Shown here piece by piece: positions 15,881-43,000 of a DNA stretch of 64,000 nt. The notes beneath the pieces were generated by a model. The model did no database searches. It saw only the letters and a program-made list of their open reading frames with translations, and was not told the DNA's origin. Location of the stretch: NCBI GenBank assembly GCA_977020255.1, contig CDROCS010000335.1, forward strand, positions 248,001 through 312,000, written 5' to 3'. Each line of letters begins with the position of its first letter. The stretch's first letter is position 1. Source of the stretch: Obrimoposthia wandeli (Eukaryota). A program made the translations under genes and the position numbers.

Positions 15881-17035
15881 TATATGATGTGGAAAAGTTG
15901 AATAAGTTGATGACATATTTGGCTACTGTTGATACAGTTTCATCAAATGTCGGCTATTTGGTTGAGGTCGATTTAAAAATCCCTCCAATGTACATGATAA
16001 ATTAGATGATCTTCTAGTAGCACCTGTTCATCAATGTCTACCTAATTCAAAGGTTAAGAAATTATTGTTAACACATGAAGACAAGTTGAATTATGTAGTG
16101 CATTGGCGGCTTCTTCAATTCTACTTAAAGTTGAGAGCGAAAGTCACTAGAATTCATCATGCTATAAGCTTTAGTCAAAACTTTGTGTTTAACGACTATA
16201 TTGAGAAGAATTCTAGAAAACGTAATTTGGCCACTAGCAAATTCGGTCGGGATTTTTACAAGTCAAAATGTAATAGTCTCTTTGTAAATACTGTATAGGA
16301 CTTGTAGAAACGCAGTTGTCTACGGTTTTGCAATGATGAGCGAAAACTAATAACATATACTAGCAAGTACAACTTAAAGCGTAGTTTTACAATTGCAGAT
16401 GACTTGGTAGCAGTGTTATTAGGAAAACAGAGTATTTGTCTCGATCGACCGAGTTATATAAATCAAACTGTTTTAGACATTTCCAAACTCAGAATGTACG
16501 AGCTTCAATATATAGAATTAGAGAAATATCGACAAAAATTCAATTGTGAGATCAAAATTGCAGCTGGGGACACTGACTCTTTCTTTTTAGAATGTAGAAA
16601 TGTAAGTTTAGAAAATCAATTGTTACCGGCAATATTTAGGGATAACTTACTTGATACCCATAAATATCCCGTAAATCATCCTCTACACTCTATGAGTTTA
16701 AAGGATATTATCGAGAAATTTAAGGACGAAAGCTAGGGAAAGGTTTCGTATGATGAATGCATTTTCTTACGCCCTAATGCTACAGTTTACATGCATCTAA
16801 TAATACATGTTCAATTAGGGCAAATGGTGTGGGAAGAAACAATCTTACACATGAGGCCTATCGGAAAGTTTATGATACTGGGTGTATTGAAAGCACTGAG
16901 CAAACTAGATTTATTTCAAGAACCCATCAACTGTATTCCAATAAGTCAACAAAAATCGCATTGAGTAGTAATGACGACAAGCGCTTTTGGGTAGAAAATA
17001 ACGCTAGCCTGGCTTATGGACACTTCCGAATTTAA
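15881..17035 (+). pseudogene. Protein-primed DNA polymerase B, C-terminal part (copy B)
   Basis: LLTHEDKLNYVVHWRLL, KSKCNSLF, motif C AAGDTDSFF, SSNDDKRFW; stops and frameshifts. Confidence 0.9.
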
Positions 17036-17289
17036 ACGGTTTTCATTTTTTCATTTTTTTGTTTAGTTTTTTAAAATTTTAGATCCTTATGGCACCTTGA
17101 CTATAACTTTTTGTTATTTCAATACATTTTTAGGTTGGGCCTTATCTTTGCTGACAGATCTCCATGGGATATTTGGCTGAATAAATTTATTGAAACACAC
17201 TTTTATTATTTTACCCGTATATTTTAATCTTGTATGATTTAATAAAATAATTCAAAATAAAACATGTTGTTAAAAAATATTTATTATTA

Positions 17290-17600
17290 TAACACATCAA
17301 TCATTTTGCAACGATTACCATAAAATACGTAAATGTCCACAGTTTCTCGTTACTGGATCCTGGTATTGTATCTTGTTGTAAAAAAAAGTTTGTTTGGATA
17401 ATACATTGCAAGTGGATCAAATACATGTATTGTCCAGTCTTTAACATAAATAGCTATCCAATGTTCTTCTGGTAAATTCGAAGTATGAGTATTGATAATG
17501 TAACCTCCAGATTGAAAAAATGGAATCATATCAATAGGATAAACTCCATTGAATTTATCACCCATGACCTTCTCTGCTGATTCTTGTACTTGTAGTAAAC
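17290..17600 (-). pseudogene. Adenain-like cysteine protease (copy B)
   Basis: YIINTHTSNLPEEHWIAIYV...HVFDPL contains the catalytic His and Asp; frameshifted before the Gln/Cys motif. Confidence 0.8.
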
Positions 17601-17647
17601 TAAATTAAAATTATAAATATACATTTAAAAAAATGACTTGATTCATT

Positions 17648-18880
17648 CTATAATATGACAGTTCTGTTTTTATTGATTCGTATTTGTGAATCAAATACTC
17701 CGCGAATAAGCATCGTAGTAGGATTTGTTAAATATGCATTAAACTTAATTTCTAGTCGTAAATTTCCATCCTTTGGTAGTTGGCATGGTTTATATTAAAG
17801 TCTGGTGCCAAAACAAATGTGAAGAACGGACAGCTGCTTTTAAACTCAGTTGAAGAAATACCATTGTTCATATTTTTATCTAGTTGGCCCAAATTCCGAA
17901 TAATAGATTGCATATAAGCCAAAGCATAAGCATTACCTTCAAAATCTGTTTTATATGTTTCGCGATAATCAGTATTTCTTGTAAGTGTTACTGAACCTAC
18001 ATTAAGATAGTCAAATTAAGTTACATCTGTCGTATAATTTCCTAGAAACTTTGCAGTTTTTTGAAAAGAAATTAAAACGAATTTTGGTAATCTTACATCA
18101 CCATAAATTTGATCCTTATTAAAAGCTTGCATACCCTTACCCAAAGAGTATGTTATAAGTTTAGTTTCTCTAATAGGATAACAAGCATTGTTTTTTTCCA
18201 ATACTATATTATGTGCCATTAAAACTGATTGCTCAGTTTTAACTCTTCGGACATATAGTTTTGCATCCAAAATATATCAAGTCTAGGTTTTAGAAAGTCT
18301 GTGATTATCAAAGAAAAATTTAATTTATTACGTTTCAAAGAAAGATGTACATTAACACCGAAACTTAAATATTTCAGTTGTTCAAAGAAATTCAATCTCA
18401 AAGACCCACACATTTCGTAAGCTTTAGATTCTGCAATCCATTATTTGTGAGTTGCAGCCGTTTTATTATAACCAATGGTTGCCAAAGTAGTATTTTGAGT
18501 ATCAGTACTATAATTCAATAGACTTTCGATCAAAGCTTTATGAGCATAGGAAGAATTTCCTCCTTCAATTTTAACATTATCAAGAGTAACAATGGCATCA
18601 TTAAATAAAAAATAAAAGAAGCAATTAACAGTTGTTTCATCTGGATTTTTTAAAATGAGTACTATCTCGATTTGTTACTTTTATTTGAACATAAAGCAAA
18701 GTATCATTCAAATCTAAATACTCACTATTGGAACCATTAATATTAAATTCTAAATCGGTTAAAGTGGTTCCTGAAACTGAGTTAACTAGAAATATTTATT
18801 CAAATGAAGCATTATGTACAACTACTTGCGGAAGAGGTTTATCAAAAATTCACAATTCGATTTTGGCACAACTAAATTTT
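17648..18880 (-). pseudogene. Major capsid protein, double jelly-roll type (copy B)
   Basis: Homologous to 28933-30161; ORF pieces 18016-18270 and 18219-18413 (LRLNFFEQLKYLSFGVNVHLSLKRN; DAKLYVRRVK). Confidence 0.85.
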
Positions 18881-20442
18881 CAAACATAGTTCCTTCAACT
18901 TTCATACGTTTGTATATATTAATTTTTAGCTTATTTTTACGTTTAAATCCACTACCTTCTTGGCTTTTATTCGATTTACCTTTTCTAATCAAATTAGCAA
19001 CGTCAGGTAAAACATTATCAAGTTCATTAAGTGCATGCTTCTTAGAAGTTGGTATTAGTTTATTGTCATTAGATGAAAGGAAGTCCTTTCCTAATTTTGA
19101 TACAAACCGCCTGAGTCTCTTTAAAAGAGGAAAGGCAAATCTACCTAATGTTCTAAGCCAGCTGGATCCATATTGCTTACCAACAAAATATGGTAATTCT
19201 CCACCTTGTTGACTTTGACTATAAGCTTCAATTATTGCTGGATTCGCCAGTTTTGTTTTCTTAAATGTATTGTTAAACTTGTCTTAGCTCCGTACGTGAA
19301 ATCTATTAGTTGTCTGGAATCATCTCTAATTTACTTCAATATTATTTATAGAAAAGAGAGCAACTGAAAGATAAATTGGTTGATCTATACGAATACCGAT
19401 AACTTTCCCAATTTTATTTTGAGTTTGAGATATCCATATTGATCTCAAAAGTGGAACTCGTAGTCCTCCTACAAGCGTTGGTTCTATTAAACTAGTATAA
19501 ATATATAACTGATTAATTGTAATAAAAGGTTTTGCCTTATTTTTAGCTTTTAAAGTTTTTATTGTATGGGTTTCAAAGGTATTTCTGGTTAAACCGAGAT
19601 TTTTAGCGAGTTTATCATCAAAAAAACTCGTTTTATATTGCTCTTTACTGTAGACGTCAATTTACCATTTTTTCATGTTTCACATTTATCCAAATAGTCA
19701 CTAAATTCCTTCATTATAAATTTACATAAATTCGCATCACTATCTATTTTATAATCTTTTGAAAACATTTTGAAAACATTTTCAGTTCCAGTACATATTT
19801 AGATCTAGTTTCAGCTAACAGTTTTGCTACTCTATCAGGAACATTTCTAACTGATTTAGATGAGACAATATCCCGTTTCTTAGTACCTACTGCATGTTAT
19901 CAAAACCAAATTGAAGAGCTTCTTATTTAGATTCTAAACTCAATTGAATAAAGTGTAATCAATTTTTAATTATGACTTTGTTATTTTCATATAATACTTT
20001 CACTTCTTTATCTATACAATTGTAATATAATTTTCATTTTTTTCCTACAATATTATTTTTTTTTCATATATATTTTCTTTTGTAAATGAAACATGTGAGT
20101 TTTTTCTGATAGTAATTGGATAATAATAAAAAGAAAATTATGTTTAAGCTGCTTCCCATTCTTATTGGATATTTATAGAACTTTCTTAATCGATAATAAA
20201 GCTACTAGCATCATTATCCAGCTGAGTCTGAGCATACGTTACTAGTAAAACTATATATAAAGATTTCATATATTATTAGACGCTAATATCCAAGTTAGAT
20301 CTGAAAAACCATGCCATTTAACAAAGTACTGTTTATCTTTACCAGGTTCCTTAGATTTTATTATTTTTTGAAAAAGAAAAACGTTAGATTTCTTTGATAT
20401 GACTTGTAATTCTTGTTTGCAAAATTTGCCCTGAATGATATT

Positions 20443-20547
20443 AGTTATGTTTTCTATCGCAGACTTAATTCAAAACTTAGATTTTACAACACAATTTAAA
20501 ATTTGTTCATTAAAGATCAGTTCTTAAACAAATTAATGAAGGTATGA
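20443..20547 (-). repeat. 3' LTR of the Gypsy element (truncated; U3 end and PPT deleted)
   Basis: 10 mismatches in 105 nt versus 39769-39873; integrase codons (NATVNSYSKHSP) run almost directly into it. Confidence 0.85.
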
Positions 20548-20690
20548 ATGGTGAATCAACGGTGAATGTTTTGAATAACTATTTACTGTTGCATTTATAG
20601 CAAATTCAATTTGGGGCAATAAATCGTGCCGACATTTTCCTGTTTTGGTAGACACTATAGTTGTTACAATCATATCTCTTACCGTACGTA

Positions 20691-21608
20691 TGTAATATAA
20701 TTTGTTAATATATTGATTCCAAACAAGATAATATTTCAAACAAACGATCGATCAACGGTATTTGTATATGTATTTGTATTTGAATACTTCCAAATAATAA
20801 ATGAATCAAATGTATTTATCCAAATTGGTTTTACACTTTATCAAAATATTGTCAAATTGTTAAAGGCTGAAAGAATTGACGTTTGAGGTTTCAGTAAATG
20901 TAAAAATCAATAATATTTGTCTTCTGTGAAAATCTCCACTATATTTAATACACTTCCAATTAATAGAGCTTGTACTGCAAATCTTCTGCCCCTGCATTAA
21001 GCTGGCGGGTGCGATTGTGCTAGAAAGTTCATCTGAGTTTGGCACAGCGCACACGGTAGAGAAGGAGGAGATGCACACAAATACACAGTGTCCATTGAGT
21101 CAGGACATCTTGCTAGCTCGCAGGGGTGTAGAGTCGAGGGAGATTCCTGCTGCATGCAGTTGTGCTGTTGCCGTTGCTGCTGGCGGTGTTGTTGTCACAT
21201 ATCAGCAGGAGAAATGGCAGCGGCAGAAGATAACACCACTCTCTTGATCAAGCCAACATCAGGATAGTGGAGGGCGGCTCTGCACAATCTGGATGACTTT
21301 GTGCAGGTAAGTGCCCTTTATTTATTTTTTCCCTTATTTATCTCTGACTTCGCGGGCATTTTGCCCACTGTGAAGCCAGAAATAAATCTGCCGTCCCCAT
21401 GACGAGACCGGCAGGGCGAAACCGGTTAAGCCGGTCGGGGACTGAAGGACAAGATGCCAAAGTACATCAAGATATAAAACCAAAAATTCCTTTAATCGCT
21501 TTTTTCTTTAATTAAGAAAACAATTAACCAACACTCTCTCACAAAAACGACCCAATATAACAATTCAACAATCCAAATTATCCAAAATATACCTTCTCAT
21601 TCTCGACA
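20691..21608 (+). mobile_element. 918-bp solo-LTR-like insertion with TGT...ACA termini and 4-bp TSD CGTA
   Basis: CGTA at 20687-20690 and 21609-21612; excision restores integrase codons AIRTVR. Alternative reading: 6-bp TSD ACGTAT without TG/CA ends. Strand assigned from the hammerhead only. Confidence 0.8.
21393..21442 (+). ncRNA. Type I hammerhead ribozyme fold (degenerate: C3A substitution, one stem II mismatch)
   Basis: Stem I GTCCCC/GGGGAC; core ATGACGA (consensus CUGANGA); stem II GACC-GGCA-GGGC; GAAA; stem III ACCGG-TTAAG-CCGGT; GTC cleavage triplet at 21434-21436. Confidence 0.75.
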
Positions 21609-22489
21609 CGTATAGCTAATTCTGCTAGACTGTTAGCTTGGTGTTGACAAGGTGCTGTAAGCTCTTGTTCAATACCAAATTTTCCTAGCTAATTCTGAAA
21701 ATAATTTCCAGTAAATATTCGTCCTCTATCTGTTAAAATACTCTTAGGTTTTCCAAATTTATATATCCAATTTGTCTCGAGGGCTTTAGTAATTGTTATT
21801 TCATCTTCTTTTGAGGTTGCTGATAGTGATACCAGTTTACTAAATCGATCGATTACTATCAACATATATATTTTTTAGATCTTCCTTCCTTCATGTGGGC
21901 CATATCGACAACTATTTGATCTAAAAATTTTCTTTGATTATAGGAATATATATTTCTTTTGTTCTGCTTGTTTCAATTTTTCTTTTGGAACAGTAAATGC
22001 ACTTTGATGTACATTATTTTATTTCTTGAAACATTTCTTTAAAATATAAGTTATCTTTCATATAGTTATAAACTTTTTGTATTCCTAGGTGACAAAGATA
22101 TTGATGAATTTTATTAAAAATTTCATTAGCGTTTTTTGGAGGTATGACAATTAAATCTGTAAAGTTTTGTTCAAAATAAAGGATATCATCACAGAGTTTA
22201 AGTTTCTCTCTTATCTGATAAATCCAACTTATTTTGCATTCTTCGGATAAATCCTTACTTTCCAGTTGGAGGAAAACTTTCATTTCTTGCACATGAATAT
22301 CTTCTTGTTGTATTTTCTTTATCTTACTCAAGAAGTTGTCTTCATTTAGTGAGTTAATATGTCGTATTTTAGATCTCTTCTCTTGTGCATCTATATGTTT
22401 AGTTTCACACTGAGCACATACTGTTTCATTTAATCTTGACATACCATCGGCATTACCATGGTCTATACCTTTACGATGTTCTAACTTAA

Positions 22490-23148
22490 AATTAAATTCT
22501 AAGAAATTTGCTAGCCATGTTTGAAATTGAGGACTGATTGGTTTTTTCGTCGTTCTTAAAAATACTAATGCTTTGATCTGTTCTTGCCAAAAATTCTGTT
22601 CTATATAAATATTGTTTGAAATGCATAGTAAATTCGTATACTGCTAAAAGTTCTTTTCTGGTAACACAATATTCTTTCTCATGGGAAATCAGATGTCTAG
22701 AAGCGTATGTAATCACATTTTCGTTTCTCATTTCATCAAGTTGGCTCAAAACTGCACCAATCGCACCAAAGCTTGCGGCTGTATCAATTATAAAATTTCT
22801 ATTTCGAATATAAGGAGCTGTTGATAATTTTTTTTCAGGATTGCAAAAATTGTTTTAAAATCTGGTGAGCATTGTATTGAATTCTTATCTCTGGATTAAA
22901 CTCTGGAATGTCGTCGGTGCTGTAACAAACCCAAATGGCATGCAATTAAAGCAAAATTGTCCTAATTTTGTACTGAAAGCCAATTTTGTCTGAGATTCAT
23001 TCTCTATATCTACCTGATAATAAGCTTATCCAATATCTAATGTCGTACATATTTTAGTATCACCTAGACAATCGAACAATAGTTGTGCATACAGTATGGG
23101 AAATGAAAACTTATTGGTTACAGTATTTAATTGTCTGTAGTCAACACA
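22490..23148 (-). pseudogene. Gypsy RT (middle) and RNase H; the YxDD half of RT is deleted
   Basis: CV|DYRQLNTVT, TLDIG*AYYQV, MPFGFVTAPTTFQ, then a jump to IDTAASFGAIGAVLSQ and YCVTRKELLAV. Confidence 0.9.
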
Positions 23149-23245
23149 AGTAGGTGGATGTGTCCGGTCTAATTCCCCCCCCACGGGGGGCTACCAATGT
23201 CCTTTAAAACCGTGTATGTAAGTGGAGTGAAATTTCGTGCATGTG
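23149..23245 (+). repeat. Left TIR of Polinton A
   Basis: AGTAGGTGGATGTGTCCGGTCTAAT...CTACCAATGTCCTTTAAAACCGTG...GGAGTGAAATTTCGTGCATGT is the inverted counterpart of the right end. Confidence 0.93.
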
Positions 23246-23625
23246 TTGAAAAATTGAAAAAACAACCCTCCACATTTTTAAAATTGTTACTTTGAAATTT
23301 ACCGCGAATCTCAAAAGAGGATAGAGAAGACCACGGGAATCCATATTGGCCCCGGCGGCTTATCGCAGACGAGATTTCAAATAATATGTGAATATATTAC
23401 CACTATTTTTTAATAAAGATTTTAGATTTTAGATTAATAAATTACTAAATGTTTTTGTTAAATATTTAGGTCAGATTTATAAGAGAAAAATTAGGTCAGA
23501 TCTATATAATTTAGAGGAGAAAAACAAAATACGAGTCAAAATTATTTTCAAAACATTTATTAAATCAAAAATAAAACACCATATTGGCTTCACTCAAAGT
23601 CCAAAGAGGCTGCATTTTCCTGTCA

Positions 23626-23976
23626 TCAGCAAAATATCCATTGAGACGTATTGATTTTTTTCCATAGTTCTTCATCTAGAATTGGAGCAATCACATATTC
23701 TAGATCATCTTTAAAAGCCAGACTGGGATCAGTTTCAAACTGGAAAGAATTTCCTTCATATACATAATCAGGAATGTAAAATCCCAAAATAATTTTCAAT
23801 TGATCAATATCAGATGTTGTTAAAATTTTGATGAGATATTTATTCTCCACTTTAGATATTTTCACAGGATTCATAACTCGTATAATTTGATGCCTCTTTA
23901 ATATATTACATAGGTTTCCTTTTGAAATTCTTTCTGTTGAATAAAAAATTCCTACACATCATAGAGGAGGATCCAT
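23626..23976 (-). CDS. Polinton hypothetical protein (left-end ORF1), one internal stop near its start
   Basis: ORF 23626-23874 plus upstream codons; a paralogue in copy C (12904-13129) conserves IMNPVKI.KV.NKYLI.ILTTS.IDQLK.ILGFYIPDYV. Confidence 0.6.
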
Positions 23977-24149
23977 TCTAAAATAAGGAAACTGATTAAA
24001 AAACAATGTTTTTAAAAAAATACATATAAGATACATATAAGATACAAATATTTAAAAATATAAAACTGATTATTAATTGCCAAATGAAAGAAACATAGTA
24101 AAACCGATTACAATTTATAACATGCAAAAGAAAAAAGTTAAAAAATAGA

Positions 24150-24680
24150 AATATGAGCACGTTCAATTTTCAACTTTGTTCCCATTTCATCTTTCTTGTA
24201 ACAATATAGTAGAATTGTTACAGTCCATTGCTTCTTTTTCGGAAACGCATAAACATCTATTTCTCTTCCATAGTCATCTAGAAAGGCTGCATCGGCTCCT
24301 CGGATATAAAATTCGTTCTTATTGAAAGTAAAATTTGGAACTGCCTTTTCAACTTTCTGTTTAAGATATTGAAAATCTGGTTTTTAAATATTTGATAGAT
24401 AATAGCTGAACTTTATTCTTTCAATTGTCACAGGATTTACTAAAGCAATCAGTTGAGCCTTCTTCAAGAATCTGACTTTGTATTTGAAATATTGTTTCAC
24501 TTCTTCATACATATCCTTATCCGATTTTTCAAACATTTCTAAATCTTCGTCACCTCTTAATATCCGTTGATTATCGTCCATCATTGATAATTGTCTTTGA
24601 TATGAATGCATTTACTGTGATTTGTTCTCCAATGGCGCATTCTTTTATACTAATTTCTAACAAAGAAATGAATCTCATTG
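24150..24680 (-). pseudogene. Polinton hypothetical protein (left-end ORF2)
   Basis: ORF 24384-24611 continues after a stop as KPDFQYLKQKVEKAVPNFTFNKNEFYIRGADAAFLDDYGRE; also present in copy C at about 13280-13830. Confidence 0.5.
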
Positions 24681-25299
24681 ATTAATATAACTAAAGCATT
24701 GAATTTGTTTGGACTAAATCCATATTAAAATCAAATTTGATTGGAAGAAATATATAATCCAATTATAATAGGTTTGCAAGATAATTACAAGAAACGTGCA
24801 ATAAAAAAACAGGTTCAGACATGTATAAAGAAGATTTTACAGAATACAATTTTAGTCTATTGAAACTCGTAAATATAAATGATAAAGGTAGAATAGAAAA
24901 TGAATAGAAACTGAGACAATATGTGAAAAAGTTTGACAATTTCACAGTTGTTATTTTTCTCACAGGTTAGTTTTTTCATTTTATTTTCATTTTGAATTCT
25001 TTTAGGAAATTGTCGTGTTATGGGATGCAAAATACCAATTTTTGAGTTCGAATTAACATTTAGAATTCGAATCACTGCAATACAATCAATCACGATTTCG
25101 GCTAATCTTGGGAAACAGATAAATCACACGTTATTCGAGAATTTAGAAATCGTACACAAATAAATAAAATTATAGCCAAATATTCATTAATTTATTTTTG
25201 TATTTCATCTACAATAGCTCTAACATTGTACATTTCAATAAGGAAACTTCTATGATAATATAAACAATATTAAAAATGAAAGAGTATATGTAATGGAGC

Positions 25300-25878: not shown

Positions 25879-26112
25879 CATACATATTTAATTCTAATGG
25901 AGTAACTGTTTATATAGAGAACAATTATAAAAAATAAATTTGCAATGCCTTTTAAGAAGTTGATAGTAAAACGTAAAGCAAAGCATAAGAAATCAATAAA
26001 AGAATCATTAAGAAAAAAGAAGTGAATAAATTAATCAAATCTGTAGTTAGAAATACAAGAAAACTTAAATGGCTTCGAATATAAACAATATTCAAATTGA
26101 ACCTTTTTTAAA

Positions 26113-26442: not shown

Positions 26443-26537
26443 ACAATTATTTCTAAAATCAGCTAAAGATAAGGGTGCTAACCCTACTTTACCTAAATTT
26501 AAATTTTCTATATATTCAAATTGTTGTAATGGAGAAG

Positions 26538-30161: not shown

Positions 30162-30199
30162 AATGTAGTAAGACATTTTTTAAATTTATATTTATTAAT

Positions 30200-30779: not shown

Positions 30780-33700
30780 AAGTGTCCATAAGACAGGCTA
30801 GCGTTCTTTTCTACCCAAAAGCGCTTGTCGTCATTACTACTCAAATCGATTTTTGTTGATTTATGGGAATACATTTGATGGGCTCTTGAAATAAATCTAG
30901 TTTGCTCAACGCTTTCAATACACCCAGTATCATAAACTTTCCGGTATGCCTCATGTGTAAGATTGTTTCTTCCCACACCCTTTGCTCTCATTGAACATGT
31001 AAAATTAGATGCATGTAAACTGTAGCATTTAGGGCGTAGGAAAATACAATCATCGTACGAAACCTGTACCTTGCTTCCCTCCTTAAATTTCTCGATAATA
31101 TCCTTTAAACTCATAGAGTGTAGAGGATGGTTAACGGGATATTTATGGGTATCACATAAGTTGTCCCTAAACATTGCCGGTAATAATTGATTTTCTAAAC
31201 TGACATTTTTAGATTCTACAAAGAAAGAGTCAGTATTCCCAGCTGCGATTTTGATCTCACAATTAAATTCTTGTCGATATTTCTCTAATTCTATGTATTG
31301 AAGTTCGTACATTCTGAGTTTAGAAATGTCTAAAACCGTTTGACCTATATAACTCGGTCGATCGAGACAAATACTCTGTTTTCCTAATGACACTGCTACC
31401 AAGCCATCTGCAATTGTAAAACTACACTTGAAGTTGTACTTGTTAGTATTAGTTATTAGTTTACGCTCATCACTGCAAAACCGTAGACAAATGCGTTTCC
31501 ACAAGTACTCTACAGTTTTTCCAAAGATACTATTACTTTTTAACTTGTAAAAATCCCGATCGAATTTGCTAGTGGCCAAATTACGTTTTCTAGAATTCTT
31601 CTCAATGTAGTCTTTAAACACAAAGCTTTGATTGAAACGTATAGCTTATGCTTATAGCACGATGAATTCGAGTAACTTTCGCTCCCAAATTTAAGTACAA
31701 TTGAAGAAGCCGCCAATGCACCACATAATTCAATTTGTCTTCATGTGTTAACAATAATTTCTTAATCTTTGAATTAGGTGAGGATTGATGAAGTGGTGCT
31801 ACTGGAAGATCCTCTAATTTATCATGCACATTAGGAGGGATTTTTAAGTCAACCTCAACCAAATAGCCGACGTTTGATGAAACTGTATCAAAAGTAGCCA
31901 AATCTGTCATCAACTTATTCATTTCTTCCTCATCATAAACCCACTTAAAGTTGGCATGAGGTAGAGGTTGAGTAAGCGCCCACCCATACAAATTATTAAT
32001 GTCGATGTACAGAATCTCCGTGGATTGATTTTTGACAACATGATGTTTGTTGACAAAAGTCAATCCACCGCGTATGCCATAATCATATATTTGATACATC
32101 GCGGGATCTTGCAGTAACTCGATATTAATTTTAAGAGATTTTATTGCTGTTACCCAAGGTAAACTAAAGAAATGCATGGGATCTAGCCCATCTTCTGCTA
32201 AAGATTTTACACGAAAGGACTCAAAAACATCAGCAAAAAGATAAATGTCTAAGTTCATATAATAAAGCATATAATCTAGAAGATTTCGACAATTATTCGC
32301 CCAAAATGAACGGGCCTCATTATAGTCTTGGAAACTTACACCCTCGAATTTAGTTATGGGTGGGATTTCTGTACTAGTTTCTAAATCTGCAAAGGTTTTT
32401 GCAAATTTATACGGAAAAATCCCCTTCTCATTAACCGAAGCTGGGAACACTGACTGTGTAATTGGCCATGCATTTAAAGATGCCGTTAATTTTTTTAAGA
32501 ACCCCCTCAAAAACTGCAGAGAATCTATGAATCTTAAACTGCAGAATTCAGTATATGCAGTTAAAGATAAATATTTCTCTGAAGTTTGAAATATACATGG
32601 AATTTTCCAAGAGCTTAATGTACCCAACGCATATTTAAGTATATGATGCAAGTCATATCCTTTGAGATTATGAAACACAATGGGAATGCGTGGTTTTTTA
32701 GGGAGTCGACGGCCAAGGTTACAGAGGTTGCACGCTGCTCCCAATTATCGCCCGTAACATGATCGTGATCTCTGACTAACTTAGACTGGGTTCCACACAA
32801 ATAACATAATCTACAAAAATTAAAATTAACCCAGTCTATGCCTGTCATGATCATTGCTTGATGAGCATTAAGATCATACCACGGTTGGACAATTGTAGTT
32901 CTTAATTCTTCTAATTTTAACATAAAATCTAAAATACAATTTGGAGCGGAAAATTTATGATACTGTGTAATATTGGGGCCTAAGAATAGTAGTCCTGTCG
33001 AAGCCGGTAGGTGAATACTCTCATATTGGTAATGCAATGCTAGAATTGACTCAAAATCAGCATACACCCTGAATTCCACGGGTATGCATTTTGCCCAATC
33101 CCTGATTTTTAAATCCTTATCCTTAGGCATCAGGATTCAGTGTACATAATGTCAGATGTTTTCTGTAAGAGAGCTTGGATCAGAATCCATGCAAACATCT
33201 GTGACACCACTTAAACCTTATCCTAACCGGTAAGGCTCCATTATCTAAATTTAGAAGACGATCTAAATTGGGAATTGCAGCATAATGGAATTTTTTATTA
33301 TGTTCGAGCAAAAGTAAGTTGACCGGAGTCCCCTCATTATTGCTCCTATAAATTACATCTACAAAAGGATTTTAAAAAATTTCTTCATCTGTTACATTAA
33401 CTGGGATATCAGTATTATATTTGAATACATTAATACTCAAGTTATTAAGATGTTCAAATCTTGATATCGCAGTTAATTTAACAGGAAAATATATTCCATG
33501 ATACGGCAATTCATTTAAAAAGGGGTATATTTACTGACACGCGCTCTGTGCTCAGTAATTACATCCCTTTTGAGGATGGCCAACACGCTATACAGGAAGC
33601 AAAGGTTGTCACTGTTTTGTACGTTAACAATGGAACGTGAAAGTTGAAAAGATCTAGGTGAAGGAATGTATGAACTCTCCGAAAGATATATCATGTCAGT

Positions 33701-34129
33701 GAACTTTATTAAAAGAAAGCTAACATCGTGAATTCTAACTAGAGTCCATCCACTACTTAACTCGCTATAATTAGCAATTTTTTCATCTAGGTTTCTTCCA
33801 ATTTCAGTTATAAAATTATTGTAGAAAACAGTTGCTTTATGTGAAATTACCCAAGTTTTAGTCTACTCGTTGACATTTTTAAACTGCACTGTTGCGCAAA
33901 ATTGAACCTTAGCCTGTCCTAATTTAGTCACTTCTGATTTTAAAAGACTTTCAATATTTGAATCTACACCTACATTTAATAAAATTTCCTTTTCTAATGA
34001 CACTTTAACTATAACATATTTATTATTTAGGTGATACTCTTTAGTAGCACTGTTTTCTCTACGTTTTTTTGGTGGGACCTTATTAAGAAATTGGCCTCGC
34101 CTCTTTCTTCCTACAGTTGCTGACAAACC
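30780..34129 (-). pseudogene. Protein-primed DNA polymerase B with N-terminal domain and embedded endonuclease VII-like zinc domain
   Basis: Exo motifs VYADFES, FHNLKGYD, FIDS, KGIFPY; Pol motifs YIDINNLYG, KLKSNSIFGKT, AGNTDSF (D to N), RPKCY, RAKGV; CYLC...RDHDHVTG...GAACNLCNL; upstream SGW and NVQNSDNLCFLYSV. Broken by stops and frameshifts. Confidence 0.95.
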
Positions 34130-35282
34130 TCACCCTAATTGAACGGGAAGACAACTATTTATATTAAATGTTTGTGCTGCCGATGTTAAGGCAATGGTAG
34201 CTGATGTGAAAGGGGCTGCTGAGACAACTAATGGTGGTGCTGCCGACGTTGAGGCAATCGTAGCTGATGTAGACGGTGCTGCTGTAGTAGATGCTGCCGC
34301 AGATGTTGAGACAATTGCAGTTGTAGATGCTGCATTTGAGGTTGGAGAAGATGAGGTAGTAGATGACATTGCCGACGAAGAAGCGGCTGTTGTAGAGGTT
34401 GATGTTGCATCTGCTGAAATAAATATATTAAAAAAAATTATTACCTCTAAGGCGTGAAAACATCGATGTAAGCACTCGCGATGGGGAGGCATAGATGTCG
34501 TAGCGGATGACGGGTGTATCAAGGTATTTCCTGAATAAAAAAAAAATATATATATATATATAATTACAATTTTAAAAAAATAATCAGAAAAATAATAATA
34601 AAAAATACCTAATGAAGGCAATCCAACTGTAGCTGGTTGAAAGTCCTCTTCATTGACGGAATTCCATCCAGCTATCGCCCGTTAACTCGACGAAATCGGA
34701 TTCCTCGATGGTCTCCAACCAGCTGTTGTCGCTCGTCTGAGGCTGCTCCATCTCGAAATCTGACTGGGTGATATTTTCCATCCAGTCATTGTTCGAGAAT
34801 TGGGTTGCTGGCACCAATTCCTCAAAATCTTCTTGGGAGATATCGTCCATCCACTCATTGTTAGTCATTTGAGTGGCTGAGGCAGCTGTAGAATTAGGAG
34901 ACAGGAGAGAAGGACCAATCGCAGGACCGTAAACGGGTTGAACGACTGCAACTGGAATAGGAGCAGGAGCTGGAGCAGCCTGCGAATCGTGCACCAATTG
35001 CACGATAGCCATCTTCTTGTTGTTGGCTGTGAAACAGGATAAGGAATCTCGATGTTCACCGAAGAAGTCTCGAAACTCCTTCTCCTCCATTGTTCTGCAG
35101 AAGGGGCAGACGAAGAATTGAAGCCCATGAGACTTTGTCTGATAGTAGGCGGACATTATCTCCATGCAGGACTCTCCTCCATGCGGAGCCGAAGCACCAC
35201 AATATGCTGGAAACAGGTTACACGTAATCTAAAAATATATATTAATAAAGAAATAAAAAATATAGTTTCTTACCATAGTCAT
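34130..35282 (-). CDS. Spliced Polinton coding region: Cys/His cluster, acidic WxxxIxxxDF repeats, Ser/Thr/Ala-rich tract; possibly the 5' exons of pPolB
   Basis: GT-AG introns at 35229-35273 (45 nt), 34531-34608 (78 nt) and 34414-34444 (31 nt); ATG at 35280-35282; TATATAA-like box upstream at about 35325-35331. Confidence 0.6.
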
Positions 35283-35499
35283 TATTTCAAATAGTTGGGA
35301 ATTAAAATGAAGAAAGAGTTTGCTTATATACTAAATTTTATGCACACATGCTCTTTTCTTATTGGATGAAAAAATTGAATTTATTCTACCACTGAGAAGG
35401 ATTGTTTATCTGTTATTGGTTGATAATATTATTTTTAAATATTTTTTATTCCTCCAATTAAAAAGATTGTACATTTGTAATTGTAATGGATGGAAATTT

Positions 35500-36030
35500 T
35501 ATTTTGTAAATAATGAATTTCTCCAATTAGAAGAATTGTTTATCCACATTTCAACCAATAATAAGATAGACTTAAACATTTTCTTATATGTGCAATGGTC
35601 ACCATGATCACGATATGGATAGGAAATATTTTGTGGAATTTTTAATAGATGATCACGTGAAATATTTAAAGTATTCAACCTCAAAATTGGAAAATATTTT
35701 TTTAAAGTCTTATACTTTTTGCCATCCATTTCATCTAAAACATAAAAAATTCCATTTTCAATATCAAAATTAGATTTTATTGTATCGAAAATACATATTT
35801 CACAAAAGCCTTATGTCCTTCTTTCCATTTTAATAACTGAAAATAATTAGTTAGATATAAATTAGTAAATGTTTTCTTATAATCTATACTCCTAAACGGA
35901 ATATCTATATGACATATGAAATGCAAAGGATGAAAACGTCGCATACATCCATAATACATAATTCTTTTATAATATAATCTTCATTTTTGTTAATGAAAGC
36001 CTCAAAATCTATAATATATTCTTGTATAAT
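35500..36030 (-). pseudogene. DEDD-exonuclease-like Polinton accessory protein
   Basis: YIIDFEAF...YIIKELCIMD, then after a frameshift NLYLTNYFQLLKWKEG, and a C-terminal H...HC; resembles a conserved Polinton ORF family. Confidence 0.55.
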
Positions 36031-36429
36031 TACCCAAATTTGTAGCAAATCCCTTTGTTTATAACGAATAAAAAAGCCATTAATCAAAAATTTATTAAAA
36101 TAACAAAGTACTCAGGATTCATTTTTTCATGTTAAGATTGGTATATATTGTCAATTCTCCTTTGAATATTAAAATAAATCATATTAAATGTAAACATACC
36201 TAAATATTTCGAAATTAAATTACATTTTTTTTTCCGGAGTATCATTTTTTGAGAAGTAATTTTTTTTATAATCTTCCATTAAATCTGGAGATAATTTAAT
36301 GTATAATTTATTCCAATTTATTTTATTATCCATTTTACAAAAAAACATTATATCTAAAATTGTTTATATTTAAACAATTATGTAACATAAAATTAATCAA
36401 TAACGACAAAAGAAAAAATAATATTTAAA

Positions 36430-36739
36430 AATTAATTTTTTTGTAGAAGGACCCTCTTCCAGTTTAATCCGGAGGATTTTCTTTCTTGCAGCTCACCGAT
36501 CTACCTCCATCTCCTCTCTTCTTTTTTCAATCAGTTTCTTTTTTTCCAATTCCATCTTTTTGTTCCACTCCACGATCTGTTGTCGTTCTGCTAGCCGCCT
36601 GTCCTGAATCTCCACCCGACGATTTCACTCGGTCGCGACAGCTGTGTAGAGATTCTGATTGAGGACCCTCTTTCTTAAATCTCCTTTCTTCTCATTTCTC
36701 CTGATGTTTTCTTCTATATTCGTCACGAGACTTTTCATT
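36430..36739 (-). pseudogene. Charged coiled-coil accessory ORF
   Basis: MKSLVTNIEENIRRNEKKGDLRKRV...ERQQIVEWNKKMELEKKKLIEKKREEME with two in-frame TGA stops; TATATATA upstream near 36790. Confidence 0.45.
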
Positions 36740-37032
36740 TAAATGAATTCCATTTTTTAATTATGAAGAGGTTAATAAATTTGAACCTATATATATAAAT
36801 TTAAGATATTTTTAATCCAATCACATTCAATTAAATGATATATTTTTATTTATCAAATGACAGTTTAATAAATCTATAACTAATCACATTCGAATAAGTT
36901 AACTACTTTTTTCATCTTGATATTTTAATAAACTTAAAGATAGTATTTTAATATTACTAAATTTGTAAAAGAAATTTAAAATTTATAAAGTTTTTTTAAA
37001 TAAATATAAAGAAGAAAACGAAACACATGAAA

Positions 37033-37510
37033 TTATTTTTTATAAATTATATTATTAAAAATCTTTACAAAGTCATCATTGGGATCATCCTCATCGAAAT
37101 CCCTCCGACTGCGTTTTATTAGAGAAAGCGGTACTGGCTCCTTCTTCTTTTGCCATCCAGGTTTCTTTTTCGGCTTCACCGGTTGTTGTGCAGTAATTGC
37201 CGTTCCCTGAGGTTTTGGCAATAGTTGCCGCAACGTTTTGGGAGGAGGTGCAGCCGATGTTGATGGCCCCGACATATAAGTAGTTGCCTTCCTCTTCCGA
37301 GAGCTTTCTTCAGTTTCTACTCCTTCTCACGCCGAAGCTTCTCACGGCATCCTGCTGCCCTCGAGAATCTGGAAGCATAGCCAGTGTATCCAGTTCCGCC
37401 AGGAAATCGTCCATTTCAGCTTCATCCCAGGCCCTCTTCAAGTTCTGGCTGGTTGTTGGACGAGGAGAAGCAGTCTTCCAAGCCCTGGCCAAATTTTGGT
37501 TTATACTCAT
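37033..37510 (-). CDS. Two small Pro/Lys-rich and acidic accessory ORFs next to the right TIR
   Basis: ORFs 37310-37510 and 37033-37275 are GC-richer than their flanks; TATATA boxes at about 37588-37613 upstream. Confidence 0.4.
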
Positions 37511-37818
37511 GAAGCCGGTGATGTCTCCTGCAGGCGTCGTTGACTCGGTGGCGGACTAATCTCAATCGGAGAGACTAGGATCCTCTCGTATATATTTTTG
37601 CGACCCTATATATATGTATTGCTCGTCAGGCCACTGCGGGCCCGAAGGGCGCGCGTTGGCCTTTAGATGGCCTCTCAGGCACTTCCTCACTCTGAGGGAG
37701 TACTATGAGATTTTCAATTTTAAAGGGTGTTATATGGGGTTTATTAGATTTTTGGATGTTGGGCGGCGGGGGGGTAGAAAATTTCACTCTACACACATAC
37801 ATGAAATTTCACTCTACA

Positions 37819-37924
37819 TACATGCACGAAATTTCACTCCACACACATGCACGGTTTTAAAGGACAATGGTAGCCCCCTGGGGGAAGGGGGAGGGGTGGA
37901 TTATACCGGACACACCTACCTACT
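37819..37924 (-). repeat. Right TIR of Polinton A
   Basis: Ends CCGGACACACCTACCTACT; followed by TSD AACACA. Confidence 0.93.
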
Positions 37925-38170
37925 AACACACATTCGAATAGTATTGTCTGGCTTTTTCACAATGACTAATGGCGAGTTCCAAGGACTTTCACAACGCCTA
38001 ATTACGTTTACTTTGAGTACCTTTTAAATCATTTCATCAACTTGGTTTTCTAAAGGCATCGGTTGTCGTCTAGGATTTTGGCTCATATGATCAGCAATAG
38101 TCTCAATCTTATGATAGACAATTTTGGTATATCCTAGATTAAATTTAGAACTCATAAATATTTTTCAAAA
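37925..38170 (-). pseudogene. Gypsy RT N-terminus
   Basis: VIRRCESPWNSPLVIVKKPDNTIRMCV joins DYRQLN at 23142 across the Polinton insertion. Confidence 0.92.
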
Positions 38171-38174
38171 TTCC

Positions 38175-38615
38175 TCAATATAATGTCCTAGAATTGAGTC
38201 TCTCTCGCATTTTAAAATAATTAAATATTTTATCTGTTCTTTCTTTCGAGGAAAACATTTTCATCATGCAAGACGAGTTCAAATTACATTCTTCCTGCAG
38301 CTTTATCCCAAATGTTTTCATTGTATCAATTCCACCAATAAATTCTGGTTTAATTTTTTCTACAACAATTATTTCCAAAACATTTTCCTTTCCATTCCGT
38401 ATTAACGTATTAAACCTACCTAAGGTCTGTTGATGATTATTCGAAAAAACTCCACTCAGATAGAAATTACTCTTTCTCATTTTGTGACATTCTACTTTCT
38501 TCCAACAATCCTTACTCATTACAATAACTGATGCTCCGGAGTCCCACAGCATTACCACATCTACATCCTTAATCTTCATTATACTCCATTCACGACCATC
38601 ATTCTTCATATACAT
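38175..38615 (-). pseudogene. Gypsy aspartic protease
   Basis: VVMLWDSGASVIVMSK and EFIGGIDTMKTFGI. Confidence 0.85.
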
Positions 38616-38799
38616 ATTTTCATTCCGATTTGGTTCTATATGCTCAATCCCACCGACGAAATGTGAGCAATGGGATCGCTCACGTTTCCCTGATTAACAT
38701 TATGTATTATCATGTTGTCCTTATTACAATCTTCTAAATCTTGATTATTTCCTTTCACTTCTTCTGTTATACAAAGTACTCTTGACGTTTTATGTGGGT

Positions 38800-39760
38800 T
38801 CTTTAAAATATAGCAGCGGTTGAAATTGTGACCTTCTTTTCCGCAAATCAAACATTTGTGATTGAGAGGACATTGATTTCGGAAATGACCTTTTTCACCA
38901 CAACAAAAACATGCTCCAGGCTGAAGTTCTTCACTTTTTGTGACATGCAGTCCCTTAGCTAAGTTATATTTTCTTTTAGCTATTTGTTTTAAGGAAAACC
39001 TTGGTATTGGTCTCCTTTTATTTTGATTTTGGGTATCTCTATTTATGTATATTTTTTCTTCATTAACATAGTTTCTTTGTTCCTGATGTAATGATACTGG
39101 TTTCTTCGTATTGCTTGCGAAATGACGGTTGTCAGGACGGTTGAATTCTCTTTTACTGTATTCGCATACGTATTATGAATTTGTGCAATCACGATATTCT
39201 TTATCTCGATTTCGCTGTACACCTTTACCAACGCCTCTATTTCATCTTTTGGCATATTTGGTTTTAATAAGAACTGCTCCTTTAGTTTTTCACTTCTTAT
39301 TCTATCTTTAATGAAAGCGTCAGTCAGCTCATATTTGCTAACATTATTTTCCACCATAGCCTCAACGAGTTTTTTCACTCTACTAGAGAACGCTGAGAAA
39401 TGCTCGCCTTCTACTTGCTTTACTTTTGCAAGTTCGAAAACATTGTCAACTATGGATTTCCTTTCTAGGAAATTTTCTTCAAACCATTTTTTGACTTTGT
39501 TATCTGCATTTAACCTTTCACTGGCATCTTTCCATAATAATCCAGCGTCTTCAGTCAACAGCAACTCAAATGCATCCCCAATATTACTCTGACTTGCGTC
39601 AACCCATTCTCCTATATCCTTTAACCATTGTTCACCTTCCTTTGAACTCATTCCGTCGTATCTTCTTATGTTATACTGGAACATCATTCTTTGTTCTTTA
39701 GGCATAATCTCGAGGATATTCTTCTTTGATTGACTTCTCGTCACTACATTTATTTCGGCG
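38800..39760 (-). pseudogene. Gypsy Gag with two CCHC zinc knuckles
   Basis: ORF 39043-39792 (IRRYDG...EQWL...VKQVEGEHFSAFSSRV); CFCCGEKGHFRNQC and CLICGKEGHNFNRC at about 38815-38915. Confidence 0.85.
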
Positions 39761-39769
39761 TGGTCGCCA
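39754..39769 (-). promoter_or_regulatory. Primer-binding site of the Gypsy element
   Basis: TGGCGACCACGCCGAA directly follows the 5' LTR and shares its last T. Confidence 0.7.
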
Positions 39770-39899
39770 GTTATGTTTTCTATCGCAGACATAATTCAAG
39801 ACTTAGATTTCACAAAACAATTTATAGTTAGTTCATTAAATATCAGTTCTTAAACACATTAATGAAAGTATGATAATTCTGGTTTCCGATTACATAACT
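39769..39899 (-). repeat. 5' LTR of the Gypsy element (131 bp)
   Basis: 8-bp inverted ends AGTTATGT...ACATAACT; matches 20443-20547. Confidence 0.88.
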
Positions 39900-42800
39900 A
39901 TATTATTGTCAGCTTCTTTAATAGTATACATTGTTAAATTACTCTTTTGATCAATTTTATTCATATAAAATATTTCATCGCTCCAATTCTGATCAAAATT
40001 TTTAATAAATAAAGTAGAGCTAATTTTAGAAATTTGAACATATTTCTTTTTTTATATTTTGTCTTTTTAACATTTTCTTTTTTATTCTTGTCTATCCAAA
40101 TATCCAAAGAGTTTTTATCAGTAACATCTACTGGTCTCATTCACGTGAGACTTCTATGTTTAGAGTGACTATAAGCATGTATTATTTTAGGCAATACTTG
40201 AATCCACTTTTTATTTCCTTATTTTGTGAAATACCTTTTTTATTCGATCTCTTAAAGTACGATTAAATCTTTCTACTACTGCTGCTTTGTACTGTAAAAA
40301 TACAGAGTAGTGATTTATATTATTTTGTTTAAATAATGATTGAACTTGCTTATTATAAAATTATTTTCCAAAATCAGTTTGCACATTTTGTGGAATGTCC
40401 TCTTTTAATATTTATTTTATGGCTTCAAGCATAGCTGTTGAAGACTTTGCTTTAAATGGAATTGTACGAGCAAACCTGCTAAATACATCAATACATGTTA
40501 AAATATATCGATATCCCTTATTAATGGAAGAATATGGGATCATCTCCATCAAATCCATTTGCCATAAATTATTAGGACCGCTGGTTTTGTAAGCTCTAGT
40601 TGGAAACCTTCTTCTCATCGGCTTGGTCAGACTGTAGGCTAACTGGTTGCTCAGCCATTTCTGCGTTTTCTTGTATTTTTGTTTTGTTCTTTTTGATAAT
40701 TTTGAAACTCCGGTGTAGCCAATTGGATCTTTTGGGTTGAACCATATCTTCTCCATTACAACCATTTAAATAGAAAGATAATTTAAATTTAGGTAAAGAA
40801 GGGTTAGCACCCATATCTTTAGCTGATTTTAGAAATAATTGTTTATGTACGTGTTGCAGCTATAATACTACTGATAATTGAAGCAACAACTAGAATAACA
40901 TCCTCTATGAAATCGCAATTATGTTTAAGAATAATATTTCGTTTCATTTTTTTAACTCTTTACATTAGTAATATCTAGAAGAGTTTTTCTATATATTTTT
41001 GTAATACATTTTTCTGTTTTCCAATTTTTAATCGACTCAAAACTATATTATATAAAACTTCCAATAAATCATCTACAACAATGCTTCGAGAATACTCATT
41101 CTCTTATGAGAAGAGGCTTTGATCAAAGCTTTAAAATAGGGTATGCTTCTATGGATTTTCTTTATTAAAAAAGTTAGAGTTTTATATTGTATATATTTGA
41201 AGCCATTTAAGTTTTCTTTTACTTTGAATTACAGACTTGATTAATTTATTTACTTCTTTTTTCTTAATGATTCTTATTTTGATTTCTTAGGCTTTGCTTT
41301 TACTTTACGTTTACGTTTTACTATCAACTTCTTAAAAGGCATTGAACATATATTTTTTTATAATTGTTCTCTATTTGTTTATAAACAGTTACGCCCTTAG
41401 AATTAAATATGTATGTTAAAACTCGTAAATCAGCTGGGCAAGCTTGTGTAAAGCGAATAAATATATACCCATGTGCTTGTTTAGCAGCATCATGGAATGA
41501 ATCAACTAGAAAGTTCTTATTTTGGGGAAATGCCTGTCTGGCAACGAAATCTACAACTGTTTGATCTCTAGAATTTTTAAATAAAACTAAGTAATGTACA
41601 TACAGATTTCTTGTTCTATGATGAAATCCTTAGTGAAAAAGATTTTGAGTGATAATATAACTGCTACTTCATGATGTCTTGCATTTTTGTAAATAAATTA
41701 TTAAAGTCCGAATCCTTGTTAGCTTCCTGATACAAATCATCAATAATTATGTCTTCTTTTATCAATATTTCACACCAATTCGCATCAAATCCTTCAATAA
41801 AATTTATTTCCTTCAACTTGCAAACTTATGTTTGGGTTAGTCTACTTTCTTCTCCTCTAAGATAATTTCAATAAATATTTTTGAAACTGGAATTGAACAG
41901 AGTTTCATTTTGTAACAATCTACATACGAAATGTGTTTTTCCACTTCTACTGGGACTAACTATTTGAAATACGGCATTATTTAGCTCCATTACATATACT
42001 CTTTCATTTTAATATTGTTTATATTATCATAGAATTTTCCTTGTTTAAAAGTATAATGCCAGAGCTACTGTAGATGAAATACAAAAATTAATTAATGAAT
42101 ATTTGGCAATAATTTTATTTATTTGTGTTCGATTTCTAAATTCTCCAATAACATGTTATCTAACCAATAGTTCAATATTATCTATTGTTGTCTCATTATT
42201 TTTTAATTCTAATAAAATTTGTTTACCCTTAATTTTTCAAAAAAAAAATTCGTCAACAAGACGATCCACTTCATTTTCTGTATTCATAGTATTATTCATT
42301 TGAAACAATAGCTTTAAACGGTTCGTTTATAAAAAAGATAACAAAATGTAATAAATTATATTTTCTATAATCGATTCAACAGTGTTTTGATAATAAAAAT
42401 TTCTCAATCCCAATTTCATAACTTTACCAATCGAAAATAAGTTTACACATAGCGGTTTCAACTTAAAATATCTGAGAGCAGGAAAAATTTTCGGTTCAAA
42501 CATGCATTCTTATTTCATTTTCTCTGCAATTTTATAAAGATTCATTGCTTTACGAGATTAGCTGAATTGTGATTGATTGTATGCCACTAATTTAAATTAC
42601 AAATGTTAAATTAATCTCATTAAATGGTGTTTTTATTTAATTTTTAACACAACTTCCTAAAAAATTCAATATGAAAATAAAATAAAAAGGAAATGAGGGA
42701 AAAATAACAACTGTGAAATTATCAAACTTTTTCACATATTGTCTCGGCTTACAATCATTGAATGGTAAGTATGAAATATTATCTTCTATTCTTCCTTTTT

Positions 42801-43000
42801 AATTTATATTTACGAGTTTTATTAGACTAAAATTGTTTTCTGTAAATTATTCTTTATATGTCTGAACCTGCTTTTTTATTGCATACTTCTTGTAAGTATT
42901 TTGCAAACTTATTATAATTGAATGATATATTTCTTCCAATCAATTTCAAATTTTAATATGGATTTAGTCCAATAAAATTCAATGCTTTAGTTAAGTATGA
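39900..43000 (-). mobile_element. Polinton copy B, right segment (integrase, basic ORF, ATPase, flank)
   Basis: Reverse-complement similarity to about 24680-27385; integrase ORF 40412-40765 (GPNNLWQMDLMEM...CIDVFSR); ATPase remnants at about 41415-41995. Confidence 0.92.

Follow-up and report, generated by a model that had tools for sequence, protein, structure and literature searches.

Which came first when mobile elements lie inside one another, and does the distance between neighbouring copies still tell when each arrived? These questions are raised by 64,000 nucleotides of Obrimoposthia wandeli (NCBI GenBank assembly GCA_977020255.1, contig CDROCS010000335.1, positions 248,001 to 312,000 of the forward strand; hereafter the window; GC content 29%). 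An earlier note had described, at positions 15881 to 43000, a Gypsy retrotransposon that is inserted in one Maverick/Polinton element (copy B) and itself encloses a related one (copy A). We find that this three-level nest of dead mobile elements is real and that it is an ordinary pile-up of mobile DNA. It was probably built by successive integrase-driven insertions during one period of activity of the Polinton family, and the neighbouring Polintons have probably since exchanged patches of 100-500 bp by gene conversion. The junctions and the order of insertion proposed in the earlier note stand, whereas a deletion in the reverse transcriptase, a cut 3' long terminal repeat (LTR), a third Polinton copy (copy C) and the patchwise homogenisation had been overlooked.

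Architecture of the nest and order of insertion

The window was compared with itself, the junction letters were read base by base, and each flank was aligned separately to intact relatives. Copy B is split into a left part (15883-20443) and a right part (39896-42993), both in the orientation opposite to copy A (23149-37924), and a pair of LTRs lies at 20443 and 39769; the junctions are found where the earlier note had placed them. The Gypsy element occupies copy B, while copy A and a 918-bp element with TG..CA ends both occupy the Gypsy.

Each of the three inserts is bordered by an exact target duplication. The Gypsy element as a whole, delimited by its junctions and LTR pair (20443-39899, minus strand), lies between two copies of the 5-bp ATATT (20438-20442 and 39900-39904), copy A between two copies of the 6-bp AACACA (23143-23148 and 37925-37930), and the 918-bp element (20691-21608) between two copies of the 4-bp CGTA (20687-20690 and 21609-21612). 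With the base frequencies of the window, such a repeat would arise by chance at a fixed position with a probability of 0.0055 for ATATT, 0.0003 for AACACA and 0.0027 for CGTA. The three target sites have no motif in common.

The interrupted genes were followed across the inserts with intact relatives as a guide. The integrase tail of copy B, which the Gypsy cuts, continues across it in two intact Polinton integrases from metagenome contigs (residues 294|293 in L005 and 327|326 in L006). At the Gypsy reverse transcriptase, cut by copy A, the alignments of four of five pol relatives break off at 37925 and continue from 23148, overlapping by two residues (234|233 in the relative P0002), which reflects the 6-bp target duplication; that of the fifth extended into the end of A. 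The Gypsy integrase, cut by the 918-bp element, is likewise continuous (874|873 in P0002), with four of five relatives in agreement and one without a match on the small flank. All three interruptions, and the continuity proposed at 20442/39900 and 23148/37925, are thus borne out by alignment. That removal of the inserts restores the host reading frame is correct for the junction codons; the phase is preserved locally only, and further stops and frameshifts are present in every host gene.

From the nesting and the target duplications it follows that copy B arrived first, then the Gypsy, and then copy A and the 918-bp element, an order also backed by the heavier decay of B. The same Polinton family therefore inserted here both before and after the Gypsy, as had been proposed.

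Homogenised patches between the Polinton copies

Differences between A and B are unevenly distributed along the elements (chi2 125, df 33). Five patches hold 17 differences in 1,260 sites, compared with 599 in 5,435 sites (about 11%) outside them, and make up about 19% of the shared length of roughly 6,700 aligned sites. In the A-B alignment, the first patch (A 26523-27035, B 40250-40762) has 11 differences in 513 positions and includes a 192-bp identical run with an integrase stop common to both copies (A 26871, B 40414). The second (A 28403-28623, B 19186-19406) includes a 160-bp identical run with a frameshift that both copies have where the minor capsid gene ends (near A 28479, B 19330). 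The third (A 28701-28875, B 18934-19108) has 1 difference in 175 positions; the fourth (A 29003-29131, B 18676-18804) has 3 in 129 and carries a common capsid stop (A 29009, B 18798) at what is a sense codon in all five relatives; and the fifth (A 29381-29602, B 18205-18428) has 1 gap in 223. In 5,000 permutations the longest run was 132 bp, short of the 192 bp observed, and four runs of at least 100 bp did not occur in any of them.

A similar tract links A to copy C, where an identical run of 102 bp (A 24351-24452, C 13489-13590) again includes a stop common to both and was matched in none of 3,000 permutations. The partner copies lie 9.2-13.7 kb apart. One further stop common to A and B stands outside the patches (A 29790), within an identical run of 21 bp. 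No conversion signal was detected in the LTR pair, the pair of terminal inverted repeats (TIRs), the far end of B or a dispersed repeat at 14570 and 53363 (P 0.49-0.75).

The patches are also enriched in shared damage. At residues conserved in intact relatives, A and B depart jointly at 34 of 195 codons inside the patches and at 45 of 591 outside (p=2e-4), and the excess persists after stratification by gene (odds ratio 2.6, p=0.001), as expected if a decayed donor had been copied. Selection was rejected as the cause of the patches, which are no better conserved between L005 and L006 (229/373, 61.4%) than the remainder (766/1249, 61.3%; p=1.0). The common frameshift near 28479 was compared with four public DNA runs (X1-X4), which represent one sample, possibly not independent of the assembly, and whose short contigs held 0.39-0.43 of the words. 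In all four, 39-48% of the read depth differs from the window at this position, a share that is among the two highest of the 12 indels listed (4-51% at the other frameshifts of A); by this rough measure, the frameshift resembles a private lesion that the two neighbours share. Identity tracts beyond chance, donor-derived changes and the exclusion of selection as the explanation, all seen here, are features of non-allelic gene conversion. The patchwise homogenisation of A with both B and C distorts the A-B divergence as a clock.

Divergence and timing

The LTR pair differs at 10 of 105 positions (95% range 4.7-16.8%), which confirms the earlier count, and the TIR pair of copy A at 9 of 96 (4.4-17.1%). 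The shorter of the two LTRs is a truncated copy; the full length is 131 bp, not the 105 bp previously assumed. A and B differ at 422 of 4,462 and 195 of 2,243 sites in their two aligned parts (8.7-9.5%). These three distances are alike and do not separate the insertion events. The LTR value dates the time since the Gypsy landed rather than the interval between B and A, and its 95% range spans both the TIR and the A-B values. A short burst of insertions fits as well as long activity.

Differences between A and B fall on all codon positions (142, 118 and 165 at first, second and third positions of 1,650 codons), which indicates that most arose without selection. Outside the patches, the synonymous (dS) and nonsynonymous (dN) distances are 0.17 and 0.10, and the dN/dS ratio of 0.59 is probably low, since codons were picked by the likeness of A to relatives and transitions were not corrected for. 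On this comparison, A and B derive from slightly different source elements, which account for the smaller share of their distance, the rest being neutral decay.

When changes were polarised against the relatives, 70 derived changes fell to B and 37 to A at 918 conserved codons (68 and 34 outside the homogenised patches, p=0.001), and B has 14 private stops compared with 5 in A. This heavier decay supports the greater age of B that the nesting order implies. A 2:1 split of the 11% distance puts B at about 7% and A at about 4% at most, and the Gypsy, at about 5%, falls between the two; the values agree with the nesting order, but their ranges overlap.

Read support and abundance of the family

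In the short contigs of the four runs, one record of X3 (record 17, 20617-20762, no differences) bridges the junction at 20690|20691, and none of the other 30 records listed bridges any junction, about 320,000 further pieces lying outside this set. Joints expected from empty sites (20442-39900 and 23148-37925) were not among the 15 listed of 3,251, an absence that carries no weight. A joint at 23168-37828 was rejected as an empty site, as it arises from the inverted ends of copy A matching each other.

Contigs that fall on 20170-40169 make up 5.0-6.6% of all contigs per run. Depth is highest over copy A, at 10-43 times the depth over the Gypsy, a ratio that is not a copy number. The Polinton family thus seems to be extremely abundant in the organism.

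A model for the locus and its alternatives

What the window shows directly are the junctions with their target duplications, the genes and lesions of the elements and the patches of identity; the individual steps are inferred, as are the enzymes, for which we draw on how rve integrases are known to act and on the lengths of the duplications. Copy B would have integrated first and started to decay, and a Gypsy cDNA would then have integrated into the tail of its integrase gene. A second Polinton, copy A, from a closely related source element, would have entered the Gypsy reverse transcriptase, and another LTR element, later reduced to a single LTR, the Gypsy integrase. Deletions would have removed the ends of B, the core of the reverse transcriptase and the 3' end of the Gypsy. 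In this arrangement, B is an inverted repeat of A at a distance of 9-14 kb and C a direct repeat at 11 kb; when double-strand breaks were repaired with such a neighbour as template, the private mutations of the donor would have been copied. Targeting of one element by another would not be needed, because in so abundant a family mutual landings are expected without it.

Several points weigh against this account. The shared lesions were judged at this locus alone and may also occur elsewhere in the genome, and either partner may have been the donor. The patches are close to short-read lengths, as an artefact of assembly polishing would give, and a single junction only is bridged among the contigs listed. 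The dN/dS ratio of 0.59 shows that A and B had already diverged in part before they were inserted. The excess of derived changes in B is uneven as well, with 40 against 9 between the ATPase and minor capsid genes (A 25300-28400) and 28 against 25 between the PW-like gene and the DNA polymerase (A 28560-31940; p=0.003). A simple model of an older B and a younger A does not explain this unevenness, for which older exchanges or a mosaic source may be needed.

The main rival accepts the nest and attributes the identical patches to an assembly artefact, in which read correction or polishing wrote one copy over the other. Patches of 100-500 bp match the sizes of short reads or windows, reads of a huge family mis-map easily, and the reads compared were in short contigs. 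However, polishing towards the family majority should erase lesions, yet the patches are enriched in them and include a frameshift absent from a large part of the read depth. Moreover, mis-mapped reads would stem from any of very many copies rather than from the neighbour, and differences of about 1% remain inside the patches. We regard this artefact as rather unlikely. Still less probable is inheritance of the patches, whereby A, B and C would descend from mosaic, already defective source elements that shared recent segments and were mobilised in trans. The dN/dS ratio and the uneven polarity along the element do show source differences, and the common stop at A 29790, outside the patches, points the same way; but each copy has many private stops and gaps acquired after insertion, and such decay should also have struck the patches, which differ by 1.3% compared with 11% elsewhere.

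Two further explanations concern the nest itself. That the whole nest is a mis-assembly of stitched repeat copies is very improbable: the repeat load is very high and five of the six junctions have no bridging contig among those listed, but assemblers make no target duplications, here found exact at three codon-continuous sites, and one contig crosses a junction of the 918-bp element without a difference. Equally improbable is that the nesting reflects targeting, with the Gypsy preferring Polinton DNA and the Polinton preferring Gypsy DNA, as some Ngaro types do with endogenous virophages in Cafeteria (PMC8547959): three Polinton copies do lie within 31 kb, but this is a single locus, the target sites lack a common motif and the abundance of the family makes chance landings likely. 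Successive insertion followed by conversion between neighbours thus remains the preferred account.

The Polinton copies and their relatives

Copy A (14,776 bp, plus strand), defined by its inverted ends and gene content, retains the full outline of a Polinton with every core gene broken. The inverted ends (23149-23244 and 37820-37924) differ at 9 of 96 aligned bases and by 2 gaps, and A has both the TIRs and the exact 6-bp target duplication of Mavericks/Polintons. The ends read AGTAGG..CCTACT, in which AGTAGG matches (AGT)2 at five of six positions, (AG)3 or (AGT)2 being expected in this group.

On the plus strand, the 5' half of a gene similar to the TATA-binding protein (TBP) was recognised at 24908-25139 by its match to L005 and L006; the 3' half is lost in A and kept in B. 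It is followed at 25303-30558 by the ATPase, an open reading frame (ORF) of 113 amino acids, the rve integrase with chromodomain, the minor capsid protein, a PW-like ORF, the major capsid protein and the protease, identified by matches to L005 and L006; the plus-strand genes of A are about 30-71% identical to these relatives. The minus strand encodes a protein-primed B-family DNA polymerase (PolB) in pieces (30779-35228; PF03175, E 3e-17). PolB has 2,589 homologues at E<=1e-20, of which the nearest are unnamed metagenome proteins (50-55% identity), while named relatives from insects, molluscs and adintoviruses are 35-38% identical. A search for viral contigs with the PolB piece gave 17 candidates, 0 of them confirmed, and one with an alignment query gave 1 distant locus.

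The integrase piece of A is broken and matches rve below the cut-off (E 4e-4), but it is 60% identical to the L005 integrase, which itself matches rve with E 1e-12. The A32/FtsK-like packaging ATPase is 69-71% identical to those of L005 and L006, and the L005 protein matches Pox_A32 above the cut-off. The adenain-like protease is a candidate, with 36-43% identity to ORFs of five loci; two ORFs tested match Peptidase_C5 below the cut-off, and the protease piece of the window itself gave no match to this family. For the major capsid protein, Atlas gave 0.97 to clusters in which 11-12% of members carry DJR-like_dom, a recognition below threshold, and the domain was found in 2 of 88 relatives. A sequence search of the PDB returned no informative match, and the single-sequence structure model was unusable (pLDDT 30.7). 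The position of the gene fits that expected for the double-jelly-roll capsid in the Maverick gene order, and together these data hint at such a fold.

Stops and frameshifts in PolB, the integrase, the ATPase and both capsid genes leave copy A without intact coding capacity. Read-through of the stops by an altered genetic code was rejected, as most stops occur in one copy only, and as PolB of A and the Gypsy gag still contain frames of 250-376 codons without a stop although the DNA is AT-rich.

TBP-like genes are present in both L005 (11333-11779) and L006 (10321-10764), with Pfam TBP matches of E 5e-18 and 2e-17. In the literature searched, no report of TBP in Polintons was found. Pfam reported no OTU domain, described at the N-terminus of adintovirus PolB (PMC8502044), in L005 PolB, for which no fold-level search was made. 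L005 also has two tandem minor-capsid-like genes and, at its end (13480-13974), a gene for a ubiquitin-conjugating enzyme (UQ_con, E 2e-12). A conserved gene of 154 amino acids lies upstream of PolB in A (35580-36027) and between the protease and PolB in L005 (4147-4608), a small rearrangement within the clade.

Copy B is on the minus strand. By comparison with A and the relatives, its left piece (15841-20442) holds the last third of PolB, the protease, the major capsid protein, the PW-like ORF, the minor capsid protein and the chromodomain tail of the integrase, and its right piece (39900-42993) the integrase, the 113-amino-acid ORF, the ATPase and both halves of the TBP-like gene (42345-42816). 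Neither piece has a terminal repeat; both ends of B are missing, as are two thirds of its PolB. Copy C (12314-13984, plus strand) was revealed by the self-comparison as a left-end fragment in the same orientation as A, from which it differs by about 15% substitutions. That B and C are Polintons is seen from their base identity to A (85-91%); inverted ends and target duplications of their own were not found, with nothing like the ends of A near B and only a decayed likeness to the left end in C. The possibility that C and B are halves of one element was rejected, as both cover the same 158 bases, in which they differ by 14%.

The Gypsy element and the 918-bp insert

The Gypsy element has the protease, reverse transcriptase, RNase H and integrase order of Ty3/Gypsy with gag upstream, together with LTRs and a target duplication within the 4-6 bp of this group. 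All of its parts are on the minus strand. Its 5' LTR (39769-39899) is 131 bp long and ends in AGTTATGT..ACATAACT, and 105 of the 131 bp are left of the 3' LTR (20443-20547), as judged from the junction letters and the comparison of the LTRs. The 5' piece (37925-39768), assigned by profile matches and pol relatives, holds a primer-binding site adjoining the LTR, gag with zinc knuckles, the protease and the start of the reverse transcriptase. According to the pol relatives, a further piece (21609-23148) holds the start of the reverse transcriptase, an internal deletion near 22870, RNase H, the zinc finger and the integrase core, and the last surviving piece of the integrase (20548-20690) corresponds to residues 873-916 of 1037 in a relative.

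Compared with five intact pol proteins (1023-1048 amino acids), the Gypsy is 39-48% identical. Relative residues 320-452 of the reverse transcriptase are missing, including the YxDD motif of the catalytic region, and at the 3' end about 120 residues of the integrase tail, 26 bp of the LTR and the stretch between them have all been deleted. The polypurine tract and a complete 3' LTR are therefore not present, having been lost in the deletion at 20547-20560, a lesion of this copy.

This Gypsy resembles Ty3/Gypsy elements in the order of gag, protease, reverse transcriptase, RNase H, zinc finger and integrase, and in its LTRs, primer-binding site and 5-bp duplication. It differs from typical members in its LTR of only 131 bp, in AGT..ACT rather than TG..CA ends, and in the loss of the core of the reverse transcriptase and the 3' end. 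AGT..ACT ends occur in insect elements of the gypsy group.

The 918-bp element has the TG..CA ends and short target duplication of a solo LTR and no terminal inverted repeat, which excludes a TIR transposon. It is repeated, by read depth, and no second copy was found within the window. The ends thus fit the label of solo LTR given in the earlier note, which on these features is likely. In the X3 contig that bridges the junction, 20 other letters replace 72 bases of the window within the element (20763-20834), the contig being exact on the junction side; this variant is possibly an allele.

Surroundings of the nest

The only host gene noticed is represented by exons of an RBM26/27-like gene (717-6544, minus strand), with a CCCH finger below the cut-off (E 1e-5) and RRM-like pieces; in Atlas, an exon gave a best score of 0.81 and 0.75 for the RBM27 cluster, values that serve as leads only. 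When the RRM-like exon was used as a query, 0 of 151 candidates were retained, and the clusters looked up bore no informative names. A dispersed repeat of about 350 bp occurs at 14570-14923 and 53363-53707, the two copies being about 76% alike. Tandem arrays were observed at 51342-51977, 57207-58447, 58735-59353, 61476-61991 and 63101-64000, with periods of 317, 410, 99, 175 and 115-138 bp, respectively. A segment adjoining the right end of copy B (43158-43409, plus strand) has no Pfam match, and by eye we take it to resemble the cysteine-rich end of a piggyBac-type transposase. Rfam gave 0 matches in 12000-44000.

Relation to known systems and implications

Copy A shares with Maverick/Polinton elements (adintoviruses) its length of 14.8 kb, TIRs, 6-bp duplication, protein-primed PolB, rve integrase and packaging ATPase, and its degraded state is that of most genomic copies (PMC8097293, PMC8502044). 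The block of integrase, minor capsid, PW, major capsid and protease follows the order of vertebrate Mavericks (PMC8097293). Copy A differs in its AGTAGG ends instead of (AGT)2, in the ATPase on the capsid strand and in the TBP-like gene. The abundance seen here seems far above that of vertebrate Mavericks, with a median of 8 copies and a maximum of 287 (PMC8097293, PMC8502044), and adintovirus virion genes seem to be confined to animals (PMC8502044), which suggests that the host is an animal.

A parallel is found in Cafeteria burkhardae (Hackl et al. 2021, PMC8547959), in which EMALEs, integrating dsDNA viruses, and Ngaro retrotransposons are nested over several levels: two Ngaro1 elements lie within one EMALE03, which is in turn enclosed by an Ngaro4. 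Retrotransposons are also nested in Polinton-like viruses of cryptophytes (PMC12220804), and nesting among LTR elements has been called common (PMC6911290). In contrast to the EMALE-Ngaro and cryptophyte nests, the order here is virus, LTR retrotransposon and virus of the same family, the Gypsy has an rve integrase and all layers are dead. Neighbouring Alu copies within about 10 kb convert each other, which affects their dating (PMC8230782, PMC6598467). Alu/LTR conversion and the present locus have in common that copies about 10 kb apart are identical in patches, that shared derived changes are clustered and that dating is distorted; the locus differs in that the partners are proviral copies of 7-15 kb, in both orientations, and that about 19% of the shared length is affected. 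Neither a Polinton-Gypsy-Polinton nest nor gene conversion among Polintons was found in the literature searched, which did not include subscription journals. Both virus-retrotransposon nesting and conversion between neighbours are thus already known, and an overprint by conversion is likely here.

The nest firmly fixes the order in which three elements were inserted; such nests are common, and a virus-retrotransposon nest of equal depth has already been published. If conversion is real, pairwise distances and shared stops between neighbouring Polinton copies could not be read as age or descent, and patterns that look intact or commonly broken in such families may be conversion products. A more speculative possibility is that in this host, with a massively amplified family of TBP-bearing adintoviruses, frequent conversion between neighbours (about one fifth of the shared length, with two partners) spreads inactivating mutations, which would hasten the death of clustered proviruses and scramble divergence dating of Polintons; nests of this kind would then offer a natural ruler for distance-dependent ectopic conversion. 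The locus points to a host with an unusually abundant Polinton family and to a related clade whose members have a TBP-like gene.

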